A stretch of DNA of 64,000 bases from Escherichia phage UP19: sequence record OX638288; one strand, given 5' to 3'. This document shows positions 3,951 through 37,436 of this stretch, in pieces. Within the stretch, counting starts at the first letter, position 1. Each line of letters starts with the position of its first letter. The notes below the pieces were generated by a model. It was not told the DNA's origin and searched no databases. It saw only the letters and a program-made list of their open reading frames with translations. A program made the position numbers and the translations under genes.

Positions 3951-5168
<1,218 letters not shown>

Positions 5169-5169
<1 letters not shown>

Positions 5170-5366
5170 TGAATAATATCGAAAAGATTTTTCGTACAAT
5201 CGAAGAAATTGAAAAACGTAAATGCTTTTTCTTCGGCGTATGGCCTTTAACTGATGGACGTATTGGCCTGGATGTTATGGACTATAAAGATGAGGACAAG
5301 GTCGATGGTGGTATTTTTAAATCCGCTCCTGAACTCCTTGCCTTCTTGGAAGAACATTATGTATAA
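5169..5366 (+). CDS. hypothetical protein
   Basis: 65-aa ORF, start overlaps pseT stop. Confidence 0.45.
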
Positions 5367-5574
5367 CAAACACCATGAAGTTGAAGAAGAAGCTTATAAA
5401 GAGCTTCAGAAACTGGTAGGTCAGAATATGTCTCCTACCCTCATTAACTCACTAGCGGCTCTCCGTAACGATTTGAATGAACGTTATAAAGGCGAGTACT
5501 ATGTTGAGTTCGTTCCTCTGACTGAAGTCGTTGACCGGTTTATTGTTAACGTGAAGGTCCATACAGTACACTGA
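5359..5574 (+). CDS. hypothetical protein
   Basis: 71-aa ORF starting at internal ATG 5359 of track ORF 5254..5574. Confidence 0.4.
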   Translation: MYNKHHEVEEEAYKELQKLVGQNMSPTLINSLAALRNDLNERYKGEYYVEFVPLTEVVDRFIVNVKVHTVH

Positions 5575-5581
5575 GGTAATT

Positions 5582-5860
5582 ATGTTCCCTACTTATTCCG
5601 AAATTGTTAAAGTAGTTTTTAGTCAGATTGTATCTGATTACCTATACGAACCCGTCGACACCTCGATTGAACTAAAAGTTCACGGACGTTTGTCTGCTAT
5701 TCTGGAAATCATGTTCCCGGATGCAGTTGATGCGATCACTGTCCAACTCACGTCTGGCGCAGCATTTGCAATTGTTCCATTTAAAATTGATAACCACATT
5801 TTGGCTATTTCATGCAAAATGGACTTCCAGAAACAAACGGTAGTTGTCGAAGCAATTTAA
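5582..5860 (+). CDS. hypothetical protein
   Basis: 92-aa ORF. Confidence 0.45.
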   Translation: MFPTYSEIVKVVFSQIVSDYLYEPVDTSIELKVHGRLSAILEIMFPDAVDAITVQLTSGAAFAIVPFKIDNHILAISCKMDFQKQTVVVEAI

Positions 5861-5862
5861 GT

Positions 5863-5901
5863 GTTTACATCATGGTAGGACTGTGGTATAGTAGTCCTAC
5901 C
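5863..5901 (+). promoter_or_regulatory. T4-type early promoter (GTTTAC 5863-5868, TATAGT 5887-5892) with its -10 in the loop of a perfect 9-bp inverted repeat (GGTAGGACT 5874-5882 / AGTCCTACC 5893-5901)
   Basis: Seen directly; followed by leader ..AAACAAATGAGGAA..ATG (5923). Confidence 0.55.
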
Positions 5902-5922
5902 GAAACAAATGAGGAAATCGAA

Positions 5923-6474
5923 ATGGGTAAGTTCTTTGAAGAGCGTAAGTTTTATAAGTTCATTAGCGAATACACTAAAAACAAATTCACTAATAACGGT
6001 GCTTATGCCCTCAATACAGCTTTTGCCAAGTATGTAGGTATGAATCCGTTTGAAGTTGAAATTGATTACCATAATGGGTGTGAACGTGTAAGCCGAATTC
6101 GTGTATATGACGAGATGATGTTTGTCGACCCTAGCAAAATCACCGGTAATCCTGATGATGCAAATACTGTTCTTTTTAATTCAACAGGCCTTTTTGGCCA
6201 TGAATTCGAATACTTCATTGAAGTAGTACGTCCACTGGCCTCGGTGAGTATTCCTGAAAATGGACCTAAACCAGTAAAAGCCACTGCTGATTGGAAAGTG
6301 CTTATTGTTAAAAATGGTAAGATTGAAGTCCATTCTCGCCATAACACAAAGGAACAAGCCGACCGTCAAGCCGAAGAGCTTTTGACCAGTTCGTTCCAAC
6401 AAGTGTGTTATATTGTTAAGGGCGACGTTACCCAAGCTACCACTACCAAACAACTTAAGTTGGAGACCATCTAA
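5923..6474 (+). CDS. hypothetical protein
   Basis: 183-aa ORF from ATG 5923 with SD GAGGAA; follows early promoter cassette. Confidence 0.55.
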   Translation: MGKFFEERKFYKFISEYTKNKFTNNGAYALNTAFAKYVGMNPFEVEIDYHNGCERVSRIRVYDEMMFVDPSKITGNPDDANTVLFNSTGLFGHEFEYFIEVVRPLASVSIPENGPKPVKATADWKVLIVKNGKIEVHSRHNTKEQADRQAEELLTSSFQQVCYIVKGDVTQATTTKQLKLETI

Positions 6475-6707
6475 TGCTGAGCGAACAACCTATTACTGTA
6501 GAGCAGTTCCAAGTTAAAGTTAAAGAATTTGCTCAGGCTCTGATTAATAAGGTTTCTGTACGTTTTCCTGATGCAACTCTGCGAGTAATTCAGGAATCAC
6601 CGCGTGCAGTATTGGTTATCGTTAATCCTAAAGATGGCGACCAGATTACCCAGTTGAAACTCGGTTCTGATGGTCTGGTCGAAGCACAGCGAGTGTATGT
6701 AGAATGA
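6474..6707 (+). CDS. hypothetical protein
   Basis: 77-aa ORF, coupled to flanking genes. Confidence 0.45.
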   Translation: MLSEQPITVEQFQVKVKEFAQALINKVSVRFPDATLRVIQESPRAVLVIVNPKDGDQITQLKLGSDGLVEAQRVYVE

Positions 6708-7249
6708 AAGCAAGCACATATCTTCAGATTGCATATCTTATTTCTCAGGAATCAAAATGTTGTTCATGGAAAGTGGGCGCGGTTATTGAAAAGAATGGCC
6801 GCATTATTTCTACAGGGTATAATGGTTCGCCGTCTGGTGGTGTTAACTGTTGTGACCATGCAGTGGAACAGGACTGGACTCGTGTTGTGTATGACACGGC
6901 CCGAATGTCCCATAAATCGATTCTTCTTAAAGAACATCGTATGGCTCATGCTGCATGGTCATCCAAAAATGAAATCCATGCTGAACTGAATGCTATCCTG
7001 TTTGCAGCTCGTACAGGAAGTTCTATTGACGGTGCTACGATGTATGTGACACTGTCCCCATGTGCAGATTGTGCTAAGTCTATTGCGCAGTCCGGAATTA
7101 AAACGCTGGTTTATGCTGAACTCTATGACCGAAATCCTGAAGGATGGGATGATATCCTCCGTGAATCGGGCATCGAAGTTATCCAGTATAACCGTACCGG
7201 TCTCCGTTCTCTGAACTGGGAATCAATTCAAAACTATTGTGGTGAATAA
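6704..7249 (+). CDS. cd: dCMP deaminase
   Basis: 181 aa; zinc-binding cytidine/deoxycytidylate deaminase motifs HAELNAI and PCADC. Confidence 0.9.
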   Translation: MKASTYLQIAYLISQESKCCSWKVGAVIEKNGRIISTGYNGSPSGGVNCCDHAVEQDWTRVVYDTARMSHKSILLKEHRMAHAAWSSKNEIHAELNAILFAARTGSSIDGATMYVTLSPCADCAKSIAQSGIKTLVYAELYDRNPEGWDDILRESGIEVIQYNRTGLRSLNWESIQNYCGE

Positions 7250-7482
7250 TGAAATTTCGTCTAGTTAAGTTTTCAGGTCTGAATTCAAAAGGTGAAAGCT
7301 TAGTAGCCTATTCAGTAGAATACAAAAAGTACTTTTTCTCTCGATGGAAATCGTACTATAAATCTGAGTGGGTTTATGCCAACATGAAATACAAAACGGT
7401 GCCTATTCTTGATAATTGCCATAGCCTATTAAGAGCTCTAAAAGAGCGTAATGCAACCACTATTAAAACTATTCTGGAATAA
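7249..7482 (+). CDS. hypothetical protein (31.2-like position)
   Basis: 77-aa ORF between cd and gene 31. Confidence 0.45.
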   Translation: MKFRLVKFSGLNSKGESLVAYSVEYKKYFFSRWKSYYKSEWVYANMKYKTVPILDNCHSLLRALKERNATTIKTILE

Positions 7483-29632: not shown

Positions 29633-30760
29633 ATGGCTTTTACTGTAAGTATAGCCGGCACAGCGTCTATTAAAATAGGCGAAAGTGCTAACTACACTGC
29701 TACCGCAACAGGTGCAGCTGTAGAAGGAACCATTACATATGTATGGTCTATTGATGGTGCTTCTAATCCAGAAGCAACCAATGTTTTGAAATATACAGGT
29801 GCTTCACCTGCAGGTAAGAAAGTTTTAAAAGTAGTAGCAACTTCTACTCCAGCTGAAGGCGAACCTGAGGTAGCTGAAGATACTTTTGAAGTTACCGTAG
29901 CTAATAAGACCATGTCTATTTCTTTGGCTTTGGACCCTATTTCTGTTTCTAAAGAAGTTGGCCAATCTCAAGTTGTTACTGCTAACGTGACGGGTGCACC
30001 TGCAGGTGCAACAATCGCTTATGTTTGGAAACGTAACACTAGCGTAATATCAGGTCAAACCGGTAAAACTATTACCATAACCGAAGCGGCGGAAGCAAAT
30101 TACACTTTGAACTGTGAAGTTACTGTTACCGCCCCTGAATATGACCCGGCTACCGCTACCAAAGGTGTTGCGGTAACTTTTGTTAAGAAAACTATGTCAG
30201 GTGTTTCTGTTACTTTAACGCCAACCTCTATTAATGTTCCTGAAGGAACTCCGGCTTCTTTTAAAGCTACCGTAGTCGGCGCACCTGCTGGTGCTACTTT
30301 TGCTTATTCTTGGAAGAAAGACGGTTCATCAGTCGCAGGTGCCACAGATACTTTAGTGGTTGATACTAGTGCTGAAGGTTCGCAGGTTATTGAAGTTTCT
30401 GTTGTTGTTTCGGCTACCAACTATAATCCTGTGACCGTCACAAAATCCGGTAATGTAACAATTACGGCTAAAGTCGCTCCTGAACCGGAAGGTGAACTAC
30501 CTTATGTACACCCACTTCCTGTTCGTAATTCAGCGTATATTTGGGCCGGCTGGTGGGTTATGGATGAAATCCAGAAAATGACCCTTGAAGGTAAAGACTG
30601 GAAAACTGATGACCCTGATAGCGATTATTATCTCCATCGCTATACTCTTCAAAAAATGGTTGCCGATTATCCAGAGGTTGATGTACAAGAATCACGTAAT
30701 GGAAGAATTATCCATCGCACCGCTTTAGAAGCTGGTATTATATACGATTACGTTTATTAA
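29633..30760 (+). CDS. hoc: Hoc outer capsid decoration protein (Ig-like domains)
   Basis: 375 aa (T4 Hoc is 376 aa); three repeated Ig-like modules (..YVWSIDG.. / ..YVWKRNT.. / ..YSWKKDG..); C-terminal ..ELPYVHPLP..WWVMDEIQKMT.. Confidence 0.9.
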   Translation: MAFTVSIAGTASIKIGESANYTATATGAAVEGTITYVWSIDGASNPEATNVLKYTGASPAGKKVLKVVATSTPAEGEPEVAEDTFEVTVANKTMSISLALDPISVSKEVGQSQVVTANVTGAPAGATIAYVWKRNTSVISGQTGKTITITEAAEANYTLNCEVTVTAPEYDPATATKGVAVTFVKKTMSGVSVTLTPTSINVPEGTPASFKATVVGAPAGATFAYSWKKDGSSVAGATDTLVVDTSAEGSQVIEVSVVVSATNYNPVTVTKSGNVTITAKVAPEPEGELPYVHPLPVRNSAYIWAGWWVMDEIQKMTLEGKDWKTDDPDSDYYLHRYTLQKMVADYPEVDVQESRNGRIIHRTALEAGIIYDYVY

Positions 30761-32200: not shown

Positions 32201-32229
32201 AAAGGGACCTTACGGTCCCTTTTATTTTT
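32201..32229. terminator. bidirectional terminator (AAAGGGACC-TTAC-GGTCCCTTT + T-run) between converging rnlB and gene-24 paralog
   Basis: 9-bp stem with flanking A-run and T-run. Confidence 0.8.
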
Positions 32230-33502
32230 CTAGTGGTGGAAGTTTAACACCAAGATAAGAACTCAACTGGCTTTGGTTAGCCATTTTGTCCATATCAGAG
32301 CCATCAATAATGCGGGCTTCTTTATAGTCCTTAGCGACGGTATAAGGGTTTGCAGTCAATGCATAACGAGCAAGCAATGCTACTGTAGGTTGTAAGCTTT
32401 CCGGGTCAACAATAACCTTAAATTCACCTACTGAAGTATCCCCTTCCTCATCAACCTCATTCAAACCTTCCGTATAAGGCGCATAATATAAAGATGCGAC
32501 TGTCTGTCCTTCACCCATCTGAGCATTTACACCAACAATAACATAATCACATGGACTATTCATATCAGCATAAAGAGGCAGACCATTCTTTAATACACCA
32601 TAAGCCAGTTCGTCCTGGTCTTCCTTTTTCTCAACCCAACCAGAAGCGGCGAGAATAGCAGCACAACGAGAACTAGCTACTGCATAAGTCCCGGCGAAAG
32701 AAGTTTGACGTTGGACGGCAGAGTTCATCTCACACATGTAATAATATAATGTACGAGCACGGTCCTGGGCATTATCGTAACGTGGGTTGGTAAGGTCTAA
32801 TACACCCTTTTCAGAAACACCCTGGACTTTAAAACGAGAACTCACCGTAATTAATGACTGCAATACGTCCTTATTAATTTCTTCTGCCATTTGAATGCCT
32901 AGCAGATTTTCAACGAAATTAGGAGCATTAAACCCATTTGATTCTAGGTCTTGGGCCAATTCGACTGTCAAAGAAGTTTTCAGTTTACGTGATTTAACCT
33001 CAGATTGCCATTTATCAATACGGAAGCCTGCTTCAGCAATTTCAGGGTGACCTTGTTCAAATTTAGAAGTAATAGCAGCATCTGATACCATACGAATATG
33101 CCCAGCGGCCACTGCTTCAGAAATAACTTCACCGAGGTCGGTTTCTGTGGTTCCGGCGAAAGGAGATGCTTCTAGAACTTTAAACACTACACTTTCAAAT
33201 TGGAACATATCGCCGGCTGCATAAGCTGTAGACGAATCGGTAAATTCAGGAATATTTTCACGTTCCGACATACCAATCTGGCCTGCAAATGTAGCGCCAC
33301 CAAGATAAGTCATTTTGTCGTCGGGATTAAGTACACGAATCCCGTACAGAGCGGCAACAGGTTGGCTTGTTTTTTGTTCAGCAACTAGGGCTTTAAAGAT
33401 TCGTTTATTAGTTGCTTGGGTGTATGAAAGAAGAGCAGGACGGCCAACCGAGTTGGCAGCCGTCAATGTGGATTCTTTAATTAGGTCTATAATCTTAGAC
33501 AT
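32222..33502 (-). CDS. head vertex protein paralog (second gp24-like gene)
   Basis: 426 aa; alignable end to end with adjacent gp24 (shared blocks RKLKT.LTVELAQD.ESNGF.AP.F.E.LL...MA.EINKDVLQSLITVS; YAPYTEGL; VIVDP.SLQP). Confidence 0.8.
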   Translation of the reverse strand: MSKIIDLIKESTLTAANSVGRPALLSYTQATNKRIFKALVAEQKTSQPVAALYGIRVLNPDDKMTYLGGATFAGQIGMSERENIPEFTDSSTAYAAGDMFQFESVVFKVLEASPFAGTTETDLGEVISEAVAAGHIRMVSDAAITSKFEQGHPEIAEAGFRIDKWQSEVKSRKLKTSLTVELAQDLESNGFNAPNFVENLLGIQMAEEINKDVLQSLITVSSRFKVQGVSEKGVLDLTNPRYDNAQDRARTLYYYMCEMNSAVQRQTSFAGTYAVASSRCAAILAASGWVEKKEDQDELAYGVLKNGLPLYADMNSPCDYVIVGVNAQMGEGQTVASLYYAPYTEGLNEVDEEGDTSVGEFKVIVDPESLQPTVALLARYALTANPYTVAKDYKEARIIDGSDMDKMANQSQLSSYLGVKLPPLEK

Positions 33503-34785
33503 TAATCAGCCTCGTAAATAATTGCTGGAAGTTTAACACCAAGCAGATAAGACATATTGCTCTGACCAGCCATTAAATCCATATTGGTTGCATCGATAAC
33601 ACGAGCTTCTTTATCGTCTTTAGCTACGGTGTACGGGTTAGCGGACAGTGCATAACGAACCATCAGAGAAATAGAAGGCTGTAATGAATCAGGGTCGACA
33701 ATAACCTTATAAGCACCAACGTGTTCTTGGTCATCTAAATCCAGGCCTTCTGTGTATGGGGCATAGAAAATAGAACCGACAACTTCATTACCTCCATAGT
33801 TCTCTTTAACACCTACGATAACATAATCCAATGGGCTGTTAACGTCACAGAACAGAGGTAATCCATTCAACAAATAACCATAGGCAGTTTCTGGGAGCCA
33901 ATTATTATCTTCAGGTTTATGTTTTAACCAGCCAGAACCTGCAAGCATTGCAGCCACACGACTTGAAGCCACAACAAACGTGCCGGAATAAGAAGTAGTT
34001 TTCTGGATTTCAGAATTCATCTCACAAACAATTTCATAAAGTTTACGTGCGGATTCCGGAGCACTGGCATAAGTCAAATCGATGATGCCATTATCAGATA
34101 CACCAGTAACTTTATAGCGTTTAGATACGGTTATTAGAGATTGCAGAACGTCTTTATTAATTTCATCTGCCATTACTGTAGCCAGGAGGTCTTCTAAGAA
34201 TGCAGGGGCGTCGAAGCCATTTGATTCCATATCCTGTGCCAATTCTACGGTCAAAGCAGTCTTCAATTTACGGGTCTTAACAGGAGCATTCCATTTATTA
34301 ACCTGGAATACGGCGTCAGAGATTTCTACATCACTCGCTTCGAATTTAGTGGTATGAGCAGCGTCCGGAACCAGACGACATGTTAATGACACCAAACCTT
34401 CTTGAAGAGCATCAGCCAATCCTGTAGCGCTAGTAGATGCGAGTGGGCTTGCTTGAAGAGCCTTATAAACCACATTCTGATACTTAAAGTAGTCACCCTT
34501 GGCAATAGCCTGGGCTTTATCTGTGAGTTCCTGGATAGTTTCACGGTCTTTAGAACCAACTTCACCACCATAAACAGCACCAGTTTGGAAACTGAATTCA
34601 TTATCAGGGGTAAGATATTTGACACCATACAATGCAGCAATAGGCTGACTAGTACGTTGTTCAGCGATGATATCGCGATAAATTAGTTTAGTGGTAGCAC
34701 GGGTCAAAGCAACAAGATTAGGGCGACCCAATGAGTTGCTGGTAGTAGTTGTTGACTCGCGCAGTAATTCGTTAATCTTTGCCAT
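33502..34785 (-). CDS. 24: head vertex protein gp24
   Basis: 427 aa (T4 gp24 is 427 aa); N-terminus MAKINELLRESTTT..; gene order 23-segD-24. Confidence 0.9.
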   Translation of the reverse strand: MAKINELLRESTTTTSNSLGRPNLVALTRATTKLIYRDIIAEQRTSQPIAALYGVKYLTPDNEFSFQTGAVYGGEVGSKDRETIQELTDKAQAIAKGDYFKYQNVVYKALQASPLASTSATGLADALQEGLVSLTCRLVPDAAHTTKFEASDVEISDAVFQVNKWNAPVKTRKLKTALTVELAQDMESNGFDAPAFLEDLLATVMADEINKDVLQSLITVSKRYKVTGVSDNGIIDLTYASAPESARKLYEIVCEMNSEIQKTTSYSGTFVVASSRVAAMLAGSGWLKHKPEDNNWLPETAYGYLLNGLPLFCDVNSPLDYVIVGVKENYGGNEVVGSIFYAPYTEGLDLDDQEHVGAYKVIVDPDSLQPSISLMVRYALSANPYTVAKDDKEARVIDATNMDLMAGQSNMSYLLGVKLPAIIYEAD

Positions 34786-34813
34786 TGCGCTTTCCTTATT
34801 GAGGGTATATGTT

Positions 34814-34821
34814 TATTTATA
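34814..34821 (-). promoter_or_regulatory. late promoter TATAAATA (minus strand) for gene 24
   Basis: Plus-strand TATTTATA 29 nt upstream of gene 24 ATG. Confidence 0.6.
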
Positions 34822-34860: not shown

Positions 34861-34886
34861 CCTATCAAAACATGAGGAGATTAAAA

Positions 34887-35156
34887 ATGGACAAGTTAAA
34901 CTTTATTCGTACTACTCTTTCAGCTCTTGATAAAGACATCAAAGCCTTGGTAGAAAAATATGGTTCCAATCCTAATGGTAATGCAGTGAACGCGTTAGTT
35001 AAGAAATACGAAACCATGGCTTATGCTACTGACTTCTGGTGGAATGGTGAATACTCTACCCATACCAAAGACAAATCCGGTAACTGGCTGAAAATCCAAG
35101 AAAATCGTATTGACTTCCGTGATATCATCAACCGCCGGGTCAAAGTAGAGGCCTAA
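34887..35156 (+). CDS. hypothetical protein (89 aa)
   Basis: ATG 34887 with SD GAGGAG; immediately upstream of the GIY-YIG gene. Confidence 0.5.
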   Translation: MDKLNFIRTTLSALDKDIKALVEKYGSNPNGNAVNALVKKYETMAYATDFWWNGEYSTHTKDKSGNWLKIQENRIDFRDIINRRVKVEA

Positions 35157-35159
35157 AAT

Positions 35160-35819
35160 ATGAATTATTTAATTTATAAAATAACTAATCTCATTAATAA
35201 CAAGATTTATGTTGGAGCCCATGCAACCGTAGATATCAACGATTCTTATATGGGCTCCGGGGTTAACGTAGTAAAATCCATAAAGAAATACGGATTGGAG
35301 AATTTTAAAAAGGAAATCCTTTTCAATTTCGAAACATCTGAAGAGATGTATGCTAAAGAAGCCGAACTAGTTGATGAGGCTTTTGTCATGAGAACAGATA
35401 CCTATAATGCGGCCATAGGCGGTAAGGGTAATCCTGTTATAGTAGCTTTACAGGAACCTGGGTATCGTGAGATGTTATCCAAAAAGACTAAGGCCGGTAT
35501 GACTGAAGAAGTTCGGGCCAAAATATCTAAAAAGAAATTAGGTTCTAAAGAATCTAAAGAACATCGAGAAAACAAATCTATAGCAAATAAAAAGTTTTAT
35601 AAAAATAGAGATTCTCATCTTAAAGGTAGAAAACTATCAGAAGAGCATAAAGCAAAAATTAGAAAGAATTCTAATAAAGGTAAGAAATTTGTATTTGTGG
35701 ATATTTCTATTAAAGGTCATGAATTTAACCACTACGATTACGCTGCCGAATTCTTTAACGTATCCGCAAAAACTATAAGAAATTGGATTAATGAACGCGA
35801 TGATTGTTTTAAGCTATAG
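35160..35819 (+). CDS. segD: GIY-YIG homing endonuclease (SegD-like)
   Basis: 219 aa; N-terminal GIY-YIG module ..YLIYKITNLINNKIYVGA..; C-terminal NUMOD3-like repeats (..TEEVRAKISKK.. / ..SEEHKAKIRKNS..); between genes 23 and 24 as T4 segD. Confidence 0.85.
   Translation: MNYLIYKITNLINNKIYVGAHATVDINDSYMGSGVNVVKSIKKYGLENFKKEILFNFETSEEMYAKEAELVDEAFVMRTDTYNAAIGGKGNPVIVALQEPGYREMLSKKTKAGMTEEVRAKISKKKLGSKESKEHRENKSIANKKFYKNRDSHLKGRKLSEEHKAKIRKNSNKGKKFVFVDISIKGHEFNHYDYAAEFFNVSAKTIRNWINERDDCFKL
35160..35819 (+). mobile_element. segD: free-standing GIY-YIG homing endonuclease gene between genes 23 and 24
   Basis: Same ORF as above; opposite orientation to flanking late genes. Confidence 0.7.
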
Positions 35820-35847: not shown

Positions 35848-35876
35848 ATAAGGTTATGTATTTTAACGTTAAAGCA

Positions 35877-37436
35877 TTAAATTCCTTTAACGTAGACGCG
35901 TCTAAAGTAACCATTCAGACCAAGGCTATTAACAATGTCCGGCATGCCGTTCTGAATGCGCTTGGTCGGAGCCTGAGCAGCAGGGTCAGCAAACGGGTTA
36001 ATACCGATACCGTAACGAGTTTTGAAGCCCATTACCGGCTGGAAGTTCTTCGGATCGGAACCGCGCAGTGGGGTCAGTGCAACGTAAGGAGCGTAGTAGA
36101 TACCTGCGTCCATTTCGTTGGAACCTTTATAACCGATAGTGAAGTAATCAGCACGGGCATACTGGTCGATGTAAACGCGATATTTACCACCAAGAACACC
36201 GGCAAATACTGCTTTAGTGGTGTCAACGTTGAAACCTTGACCCAGACCCTGAGCGGCATAACTTACAGAAGTATCAACTGCAGCCAGTACGTTAACTACG
36301 TTACGGGAAGCGATGATGAAGTTACCAGCACCACGACCGGTCTGACGAGCGATTTCGGCTGCTTCTTTATCAATCTGGAACAGAAGGGCTTTAAAGCTCT
36401 CACCGGCCCAACGAGCACCACGGATATCAATCGGGTCCTGGAAGTCAAACACACCAGCTTTAGCGCCAACGGTGTTGGTCATACCGGATTTACCAACCTG
36501 TGCAGAGTAGTTAATCCAATCGATAACTTCACGGTTGATTTCCAGCATAATTTCGGTAGCCAGAATACCACTCAATTCAGCATCTGCATCCATACCGTGT
36601 ACTGCACGAAGGTCCTGTGCCAGTTCGATGGAGTAGCTTGCTTTCAGCTGACGGGATTTAGCTTCGATAACTTGTTTATCGATACGGAAGCCCATTTCGT
36701 TCCACGGGTTATCAGTAGAACCGTTGAAGCCTTCCTGAAGTTCAGCGATAGAAGTAGCCATACCTTCAGCCAATTCAGCCAGCTGACCAGCTTCTAACAG
36801 AGCGGTTACGGCAACATCCAGTTTAGCGGCATCGGTAGCAGCGGCATCAACGGTTACGGCTTCAACAGCCTGGAAGTGTGCAGAACCGGTAGCTTCGAAG
36901 AAGTGAGAATAAATTTTACCAACTTCCAGAACTTTACCTGCAGCCAGTGCTTCAAAAGTCTGAGCAGCACCCTGACCAGAGAACATAGCATTCGGAGCAT
37001 ACATCGGGTGGAAAGCTTCTTTAGCACCAGCAGCGATAGGGTCTTTACCGTATACTGCACGCAGTGCAAATACCTGGCCGGTAGGGTTATTCAGAGGCTG
37101 AACACCACAAATATCAAAAGCAATCAGATGAGGAATAGCACGACGAACCATACCCATTACTGCCGGCCCAATCTGAGTTACAGCACCAGAGGTCTGGCCA
37201 GCTGCGATATTGGTAGCATCATAACCGTGGTCACCACCGATTTCAGCTTCAGTCAGGAAAGAACCAAATGCTTCGGAGATTTTTTCGTCACGATATTCAG
37301 GAGCGGTCAGAATATCTTGTTCCTGGTTTTCAAAGATTTTAGCGATGATAGCTTGTTTAGAAGCACCAACGATTTCAGGAAGAGCTTCGTTTTCCAGCAG
37401 AGCGGACCATTTTTGAACTAATGCATTCTTTTTCAT
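35877..37436 (-). CDS. 23: major capsid protein gp23
   Basis: 519 aa (T4 gp23 is 521 aa); gene order 22-23-segD-24. Confidence 0.95.
   Translation of the reverse strand: MKKNALVQKWSALLENEALPEIVGASKQAIIAKIFENQEQDILTAPEYRDEKISEAFGSFLTEAEIGGDHGYDATNIAAGQTSGAVTQIGPAVMGMVRRAIPHLIAFDICGVQPLNNPTGQVFALRAVYGKDPIAAGAKEAFHPMYAPNAMFSGQGAAQTFEALAAGKVLEVGKIYSHFFEATGSAHFQAVEAVTVDAAATDAAKLDVAVTALLEAGQLAELAEGMATSIAELQEGFNGSTDNPWNEMGFRIDKQVIEAKSRQLKASYSIELAQDLRAVHGMDADAELSGILATEIMLEINREVIDWINYSAQVGKSGMTNTVGAKAGVFDFQDPIDIRGARWAGESFKALLFQIDKEAAEIARQTGRGAGNFIIASRNVVNVLAAVDTSVSYAAQGLGQGFNVDTTKAVFAGVLGGKYRVYIDQYARADYFTIGYKGSNEMDAGIYYAPYVALTPLRGSDPKNFQPVMGFKTRYGIGINPFADPAAQAPTKRIQNGMPDIVNSLGLNGYFRRVYVKGI

Follow-up and report, generated by a model that had tools for sequence, protein, structure and literature searches.

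Tandem gp24 paralogues in Escherichia phage UP19 and other T4-like phages: an old second copy and a candidate second vertex protein

Why do many T4-like phages keep two genes for the penton protein when T4 manages with one? The question is raised by a 64,000-nucleotide stretch of Escherichia phage UP19 (record OX638288; hereafter the window), in which two adjacent genes on the minus strand both resemble gene 24 of T4. The upstream gene, 24a (33502..34785, minus), encodes a protein of 427 amino acids that starts with MAKINELLRESTTTTSN and is orthologous to gp24, the vertex protein of the T4 capsid. The downstream gene, 24b (32222..33502, minus), encodes a protein of 426 amino acids that starts with MSKIIDLIKESTLTAAN and is an ancient gp24 paralogue. 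Megablast assigns the region to the genus Dhakavirus, the T4-type coliphages around JS98, and the adjoining 24-kb structural block is 97–98% identical to EcWhh-1, JS98, JS10 and NC-G; judged by sequence similarity, the source of the window is a JS98-like Dhakavirus, that is, a T4-type coliphage.

The similarity of 24a and 24b is far beyond chance. The two proteins align by BLASTP over their full length, with three small indels, 238/428 identities (56%), 76% positives and E = 3e-176, and both open reading frames (ORFs) match Pfam PF07068 (E = 2.6e-98 and 7.5e-97). An earlier reading of the window, made from the sequence only, had described them as tandem, diverged, full-length gp24 paralogues and called for a calculation of their pairwise identity; the description agrees with these values. 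Both proteins also resemble T4 gp24 over their full length clearly more than they resemble the major capsid protein gp23. 24a and T4 gp24 share 71% identity across 424 amino acids. 24b matches T4 gp24 (PDB 1yue) with E = 1.6e-150 and 505 bits over residues 1–423, as against only about 46 bits for gp23 chains; it is 57% identical to the T4-type gp24 of RB27, and 28% identical, over 286 amino acids, to the gp23 of the same phage. The identity of 24b to its own 24a partner is 54–58% in the first four genera compared, and 52% in Cronus. The codon adaptation index (CAI) is 0.49 for 24a and 0.43 for 24b, with a GC content of 0.42 for both; as signs of foreign origin or unequal expression, codon adaptation and GC content were examined and set aside, the two genes being alike.

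The pair is already known at the level of annotation and is not new as a feature, since public records have annotated it from JS98 onwards, across the group and beyond. The records of JS98 (EF469154), JS10 and IME08 name the genes ‘24a’ and ‘24b’, that of VR7 uses ‘24(2)’, those of VR5, VR20, VR25 and VR26 ‘capsid vertex protein I/II’, and that of Salmonella phage CGG4-1 ‘head vertex protein I/II’. All these pairs share their gene order (23, 24a, 24b, convergent rnlB) and their tight junction with the window, and the window proteins differ from those of JS98 and NC-G only at the level of alleles (95–97% identity for 24a, 91–99% for 24b). A tblastn search with 24b found an orthologue in 116 phage records, in each of the 116 as one continuous match over 80% or more of the query; this number agrees with that of the records with two gp24 places, about 118. 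The pair is present in six genera, namely Dhakavirus, Gaprivervirus, Gelderlandvirus (S16, Melville, STML-198), Marfavirus (F48), part of Kanagawavirus (IME523, Kosakonia 305) and Roskildevirus (Erwinia Cronus), and also in five metagenomic contigs that stand for deeper branches. The arrangement is universal in the JS98-type group and extends to five further genera. In all 14 contexts (9 phage genomes and 5 metagenomic contigs) 24b lies directly 3′ of a 24a-type gene. We found no free-standing 24b-type gene among 50,697 phage records, and no lone 24b in the five metagenomic contexts checked, of the 21 24b-type clusters returned by a search of 5.8 billion proteins.

Other T4-like phages have a single gp24 gene: T4, Mosigvirus and Karamvirus, with PM2, PEi20, EcS1 and Serratia 4S confirmed as single. 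The late strand of the window reads 21, 22, 23, a cassette on the plus strand, 24a and 24b, followed by convergent rnlB, hoc, inh and uvsW. The order in T4 is the same, but with one gene 24, 29 nucleotides before rnlB; the sequence-only reading, in which T4 was not known to have a second gene 24, is borne out here. In T4, one gene supplies the same protein to all 11 vertices, whereas the two-copy phages have two genes.

We analysed the relationship of the two copies with neighbour-joining trees, which use distance only, and split-based bootstraps. The 24b sequences, including those annotated as 24b or ‘vertex protein II’, formed a clade with 100% bootstrap support (6, 9, 14 and 23 members of the clade in the different trees), and 24a grouped with gp24 of T4, Mosigvirus and Karamvirus with 99–100% support. 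In none of the 500 bootstrap replicates did the two copies come out as sister groups; they are not each other's closest relatives, contrary to the lineage-specific duplication that the sequence-only reading had implied. Site patterns, which are independent of branch lengths, also argue against sisterhood (9:2:1 and 11:3:2), with 9–11 columns in which 24a and T4 have a derived residue in common and 24b has the outgroup state. Because both the trees and the site patterns group 24a with T4, 24a is identified as the T4 gp24 orthologue, and 24b as older than the divergence of 24a and T4. The placement of 24b relative to the gp24 of Jiaodavirus and of Acinetobacter phages, however, is not settled by distance trees. 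We rejected gp23 as a proxy for the species tree, as two-copy and single-copy genera interleave in it at 50–70% support.

A larger tree, of 48 sequences, included the paired genes from 14 two-copy genomes. The upstream copies of the Roskildevirus type were basal to a 24a-type clade supported at 100%. In metagenomic contig L024 the upstream copy was the sister (100%) of a clade formed by Karamvirus, CC31, Moonvirus Merlin, Mosigvirus and T4, which is single-copy where checked (the copy number of Merlin being taken from the host list of the 24b matches only), and the upstream copy of contig L025 grouped with PM2 and PEi20. The 24a and 24b subtrees branch in the same order, with the Roskilde type basal, then L024 and L025, then the core. 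The single-copy phages, including T4, thus appear to nest among the 24a genes of two-copy phages. The simplest account of these trees would be that a single ancient duplication was followed by joint inheritance of the two genes and by no fewer than three losses of 24b, including one towards T4. Given this nesting we lean slightly towards a loss of 24b in the ancestry of T4. A caveat to an account with one duplication is that vertex alleles recombine between phages, and that contig L024 and Jiaodavirus 5N differ in their vertex module. Two further candidates were tried and rejected. The single gene of Jiaodavirus is not a deletion chimera of 24a and 24b, as no segment of it is nearly identical to the 24b of the closely related two-copy contig L024, and its pattern of A-like and B-like stretches is the same as in distant outgroups (ancestral states). 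Convergent changes in 24a-type genes alongside the loss of 24b were also looked for, and no clean site was found.

The recombination of vertex alleles can be seen in the window itself, which has a breakpoint within 24a, at about 34200–34350. On the 5′ side of it the window is 90–96% identical to JS98, IME08 and NC-G alike; on the other side, over the 3′ half of 24a and the whole of 24b, it is 96–99% identical to NC-G (NC-G/JS10-like) but only 77–87% identical to JS98 and IME08. Accordingly, the synonymous divergence (dS) of the window from NC-G falls from 0.33 in 24a to 0.08 in 24b. Furthermore, JS98 24b (locus L001, 3222–5786) groups with that of Gaprivervirus VR20 (locus L003, 3220–5784; 95% amino-acid identity, 99% bootstrap), and JS98 24a groups with the other Dhakaviruses. 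These split affinities show that the paralogues can be exchanged independently between genera. The gp23 of contig L024 is 97% identical to that of Jiaodavirus 5N, and the contig carries the two-gene module (4724–7278) and an extra ORF, about 2.1 kb more DNA; phage 5N (locus L008, 2501–3781) has a single gp24 of an ‘ancestral’ type, only 68% identical to L024 24a. The vertex module is therefore polymorphic on nearly the same backbone.

It is conceivable that 24b did not arise by duplication in place but was captured from a distant T4-like phage, beside a resident gene 24, and that the pair or its alleles later spread by recombination. Such an origin would account for the complete lack of sisterhood between 24a and 24b in the 500 replicates, and it draws on the mobility just described: the affinity of JS98 24b to Gaprivervirus and of its 24a to Dhakavirus, the mosaic breakpoint within the window 24a, and the two-gene module on a Jiaodavirus-like backbone whose relative 5N possesses just one gp24 gene, of the ancestral type. 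Against it, neither the 50,697 phage records nor the five metagenomic contexts checked contain a free-standing 24b. In addition, the subtrees of the two copies branch in the same order, and 24b does not differ from 24a in GC content or codon usage. We consider capture unlikely.

We compared the selection acting on the two genes. The ratio of non-synonymous to synonymous divergence (dN/dS, Nei–Gojobori) between orthologues was 0.04–0.15 for 24a and 0.02–0.08 for 24b, similar to that of gp23 in the same genomes, which points to strong purifying selection on both. Between 24a and 24b dS is saturated, at about 2, arguing against recent gene conversion between them. We found 21 positions that are fixed in 24b and have another residue that is invariant in 24a, T4-type and outgroup gp24, as against only 4 equivalent positions specific to 24a. 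Twelve of the 21 fall within residues 8–72 (binomial P = 3e-5). In the N-terminal arm (N-arm) of 24b a specific motif, YTQATNKRIF (residues 27–36; 33395..33424, minus), replaces LTRATTKLIY. In the search of 5.8 billion proteins the form (Y/F)T(Q/K)ATN(K/R)RIF was present in 21/21 24b-type clusters and in 0/99 of the other gp24 clusters listed, which have a TRATT-type motif, mostly LTRATTKLIY. At three of the changes in 24b (L34R, Y57V and T204I) the replaced residue is identical in 34/34 other homologues, and at a fourth (E335Q) in 33/34.

Placed on the AlphaFold2 secondary structure and the general HK97 domain order, rather than on capsid coordinates, the 24b-specific sites are predicted to fall in the N-arm, in the first E-loop strand and the insertion-domain linker, and in the spine helix. 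N-arms and insertion-domain linkers bind neighbouring subunits and stabilize the expanded T4 shell (PMC9958956). Single-copy gp24 proteins, that of T4 included, keep the residues at these otherwise invariant N-arm, E-loop and spine-helix positions, and 24b alone is altered there. In residues 120–300 the pattern is the opposite: 24a and T4 have derived states in common, and 24b keeps the states of Jiaodavirus, Acinetobacter and Yersinia phages. The two copies have thus diverged in complementary regions.

The three-dimensional fold of gp24 is predicted to be kept in 24b. The AlphaFold2 model of the 24b monomer had a mean predicted local distance difference test score (pLDDT) of 73.9 and a predicted template modelling score (pTM) of 0.72. 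Its best Foldseek match was chain 5vf3_a, which is gp24* (the gp24 of the mature T4 capsid), with E = 2e-51 and template modelling (TM) scores of 0.82/0.84, compared with a TM of about 0.6 against gp23 chains. The first ten residues of T4 gp24 are cut off by the prohead protease (PMC9958956), and the gp24* chain of 5VF3 indeed aligns from residue 11. We found a candidate propeptide of the same length at the start of both window proteins. Residues 1–10 of 24a end in LLRE↓S (34756..34785, minus; the arrow marks the putative cut), the T4 gp24 motif, and those of 24b end in LIKE↓S (33473..33502, minus), which matches the motif. The pattern (L/I)-x-E↓S at residue 10 is present in every aligned 24a and 24b; in 24a it is always LLRE↓S, and aligned 24b orthologues have LI(K/Q/H/R/Y)E↓S in 8/8 cases, with a few metagenomic 24b clusters having L-L-x-E↓S. 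Compared with T4 gp24 (1YUE, 5VF3, 7VRT/7VS5), 24a is an orthologue of the same length with the same putative LLRE↓S propeptide, and 24b has the fold, as predicted, and the propeptide motif in common with it.

The sequence-only reading had also proposed that the two genes are co-transcribed, which fits the signals around them. An exact match to the T4-type late promoter consensus, TATAAATA, lies at 34814..34821 (minus), 28 nucleotides from the ATG of 24a, where it may serve as a late promoter; no second TATAAATA box is present on either strand within 32222–34813, and hence none between the genes. With this box 5′ of 24a, the pair looks like late genes of the head cluster, just 3′ of gene 23. 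The window as a whole has 16 TATAAATA boxes against 7.8 expected, a number that no shuffle reached; 13 of the 16 are on the minus strand, several of them just 5′ of late structural genes. This excess fits T4-type late promoters. A Shine–Dalgarno-like AAGGA precedes 24a (34793..34797, minus; 7 nucleotides from the ATG, as read from the sequence), and a Shine–Dalgarno-like GAGG for 24b (33510..33513, minus) lies inside the conserved C-terminal Y-E-A codons of 24a. The junction GAGG is kept in Dhaka-, Gapriver-, Gelderland- and Kanagawavirus; F48 and Cronus have GTGAG and GAGTGA, respectively.

The stop of 24a and the start of 24b overlap in TAATG (33500..33504, minus; junction ...GAT TAATG TCT...), one base being common to the TAA stop and the ATG, which makes it a candidate signal for translational coupling. 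Equally close spacing, with an overlap or a gap of no more than 1 nucleotide between the stop of 24a and the start of 24b, recurs at all the two-copy loci examined. In the convergent gap between 24b and rnlB lies a two-way terminator-like hairpin (32201..32222), AAAGGGACC-GTAA-GGTCCCTTT, with nine pairs and a T-rich tail on both strands, which begins where 24b ends, on the final base of its stop codon. A second, separate terminator-like hairpin lies 3′ of gene 23. Taken together, these signals describe a putative bicistronic late operon with translational coupling.

The above results are best accommodated, in our view, if 24a is the canonical penton and 24b serves as a second, specialised penton subunit whose contacts with its neighbours are altered, a reading that we regard as probable. 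The two genes would form one late transcription unit, consisting of the late promoter, 24a, 24b and the terminator, in which translation of 24b would be coupled to termination of 24a. Since the full gp24 fold and the ten-residue propeptide are kept in both proteins, we infer that both would be made late, built into the prohead and cut by gp21. 24a would do the canonical penton job. The changes in the N-arm and at the base of the E-loop of 24b would affect the parts that lock a subunit to its neighbours in the expanded shell, so that 24b would probably sit in a different neighbour environment. The prolate head has one apical and ten shoulder vertices, with different lattice surroundings. It is possible that some of the 11 non-portal vertices, such as the apical one as distinct from the ten shoulder ones, have pentamers made of 24b alone. 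It is also possible that 24b takes fixed places in mixed pentamers. In either arrangement 24b may tune vertex stability. Heterogeneous vertices or a unique vertex, which the sequence-only reading had proposed as possibilities, would be in keeping with these data. Our confidence in any specific location is much lower than in the general statement that 24b is a second penton. More tentative still is a broader proposal, of which we would not expect every part to hold: that two vertex proteins are ancestral in the enterobacterial group that includes T4, that T4, Mosigvirus, Karamvirus and several further lineages secondarily lost 24b, and that 24b occupies a defined subset of vertices, giving a capsid with two kinds of corner.

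Several points weigh against a second penton. The placement of the 24b-specific sites uses a monomer model of moderate confidence (mean pLDDT 74, with residues 1–32 below 50) and not capsid coordinates, the PDB holds no chain nearer to 24b than T4 gp24, and the promoter, terminator and Shine–Dalgarno elements are consensus matches only. The sequence-only reading had allowed that the arrangement might prove universal and already characterised in this phage group; it is universal there, and annotated, but the literature covered, including Petrov 2010 (PMC2993671), reviews of the T4 head and the F48 and Kosakonia papers, contains no account of the function of 24a and 24b and no virion proteomics, mutants or electron cryo-microscopy for a two-copy phage, the JS98 genome paper (PMC2168658) and Fokine 2005 (PMC1129118) lying outside this scope. 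T4, Mosigvirus, Karamvirus, PM2, PEi20, EcS1 and Serratia 4S all build capsids with one gene, and 24b is therefore not mechanically indispensable for a T4-type head. Finally, substitutions at residues that are conserved everywhere else could just as well indicate that 24b no longer acts as a penton.

The last point leads to the possibility that 24b is functional and has the gp24 fold but is not a penton, acting instead as an assembly factor of the prohead only, as a trigger of the gp21 protease, or as a variant capsomer, for example around the portal. L34R, Y57V, T204I and E335Q do hit residues that are invariant, or in the last case nearly so, elsewhere, and single-copy phages fill all 11 vertices with one protein. 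In T4 the protease is believed to become active once gp24 has attached to the vertices (PMC9958956), a separable sub-function that a paralogue could take over. Yet 24b conserves the gp24 fold over its full length, with spine helix, A domain and P domain all kept and no domain gained or lost; its predicted structure is nearer to gp24* than to gp23 (TM 0.82 as against about 0.6); and the propeptide motif is kept. A role of 24b outside the penton strikes us as rather improbable.

If 24b is not specialised in either way, it could be a redundant spare equivalent to 24a, maintained for reasons of dosage, as a reserve, or as a decoy against host factors aimed at the vertex protein. The common operon, the similar CAI (0.49 and 0.43) and GC content, and the repeated and apparently viable loss of 24b would all suit a spare. 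Simple redundancy is nevertheless disfavoured, because 24b does not occur without 24a in any context examined, carries fixed substitutions where other gp24 proteins are invariant, and has been conserved for very long. An equivalent copy would also not be expected to stay intact at a dN/dS of about 0.05 across six genera while being only 52–58% identical to its partner, with complementary, clade-fixed differences between the two and no gene conversion seen, and we give this explanation little credence. As for a recent duplication limited to this phage or genus, which the tandem layout and the equal gene lengths might bring to mind, it is refuted by the trees (0/500 sisterhood), and the saturated dS, the orthologous pairs in six genera and in metagenomes, and the closer identity of 24a to T4 gp24 (71%) than to 24b (56%) leave it next to no probability.

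Other features of the locus also vary between phages. The window differs from most Dhakaviruses by a SegD-like homing endonuclease cassette upstream of 24a, between it and gene 23 (34872–35819, plus), which consists of an ORF of 94 amino acids and a GIY-YIG endonuclease of 219 amino acids. The endonuclease is 58% identical to T4 SegD, and T4 segD has the same site and orientation. Over 1.1 kb the cassette is 93–94% identical in DNA to AV109, JK45, F2 and NRG-P0074, among others; among the Dhakaviruses the endonuclease gene is missing from most and covered only by IME08 and IME341. This distribution suggests homing across genera. Beside the cassette, the last ~150 nucleotides of gene 23 (~35850–36000) are 79–83% identical to all other Dhakaviruses compared, and the remainder of the gene 92–100%; this diverged 3′ end could be a co-conversion tract from the donor of the endonuclease. 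An ORF of 313 amino acids antisense to gene 23 (35856–36797, plus), for which we found no evidence of a gene, most probably arises from the codon composition of that gene 23 sequence.

On the other side of the pair, Roskildevirus-type loci have two more genes on the same strand directly 3′ of 24b. In Cronus they are annotated as ‘tail fiber protein’ (~340 amino acids) and ‘Hoc-like head decoration’ (166 amino acids), and IME08 has a gene for a ‘tail fiber-like protein’ between 24b and rnlB. The loci concerned are L016 (5827–7342), L020 (4890–6427), L023 (6326–7841) and L019 (2226–3413). The window has neither the Roskildevirus-type nor the IME08-type genes in this place. The hoc gene of the window (29633–30760, plus) encodes 375 amino acids with apparently three similar repeated segments; hoc is 849 nucleotides (282 amino acids) in JS98 and 1134 nucleotides in VR20, so its length is polymorphic in this phage group.

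A precedent for the proposed specialisation exists within the T4 head. T4 gp24 derived from the major capsid protein gp23 by duplication, and byp24 mutations let gp23 fill the vertices (PMC9958956, PMC10580926). The 24a/24b pair would follow the same logic, a shell gene duplicated in tandem with one copy specialised, but gp23 and gp24 of T4 are ~20% identical and have known positions, in hexamers and pentamers, respectively, whereas 24a and 24b are 56% identical. The vertex protein influences the robustness of the capsid in T4, and a second penton could therefore serve to adjust stability to certain environments. Public records have carried the pair for nearly two decades, and its rediscovery is not news. 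The function of 24b is nonetheless a testable question, of moderate interest to capsid biologists, which raises the possibility of non-equivalent vertices in the capsids of two-copy phages, a group that includes therapeutic candidates such as JS98/JS10, S16 and F48-type Klebsiella phages. If confirmed, the nesting of T4-type genes among 24a would change the evolutionary reading of a model phage head, and, if two vertex proteins are indeed ancestral, the textbook T4 head with its one penton protein would be a simplified derivative.

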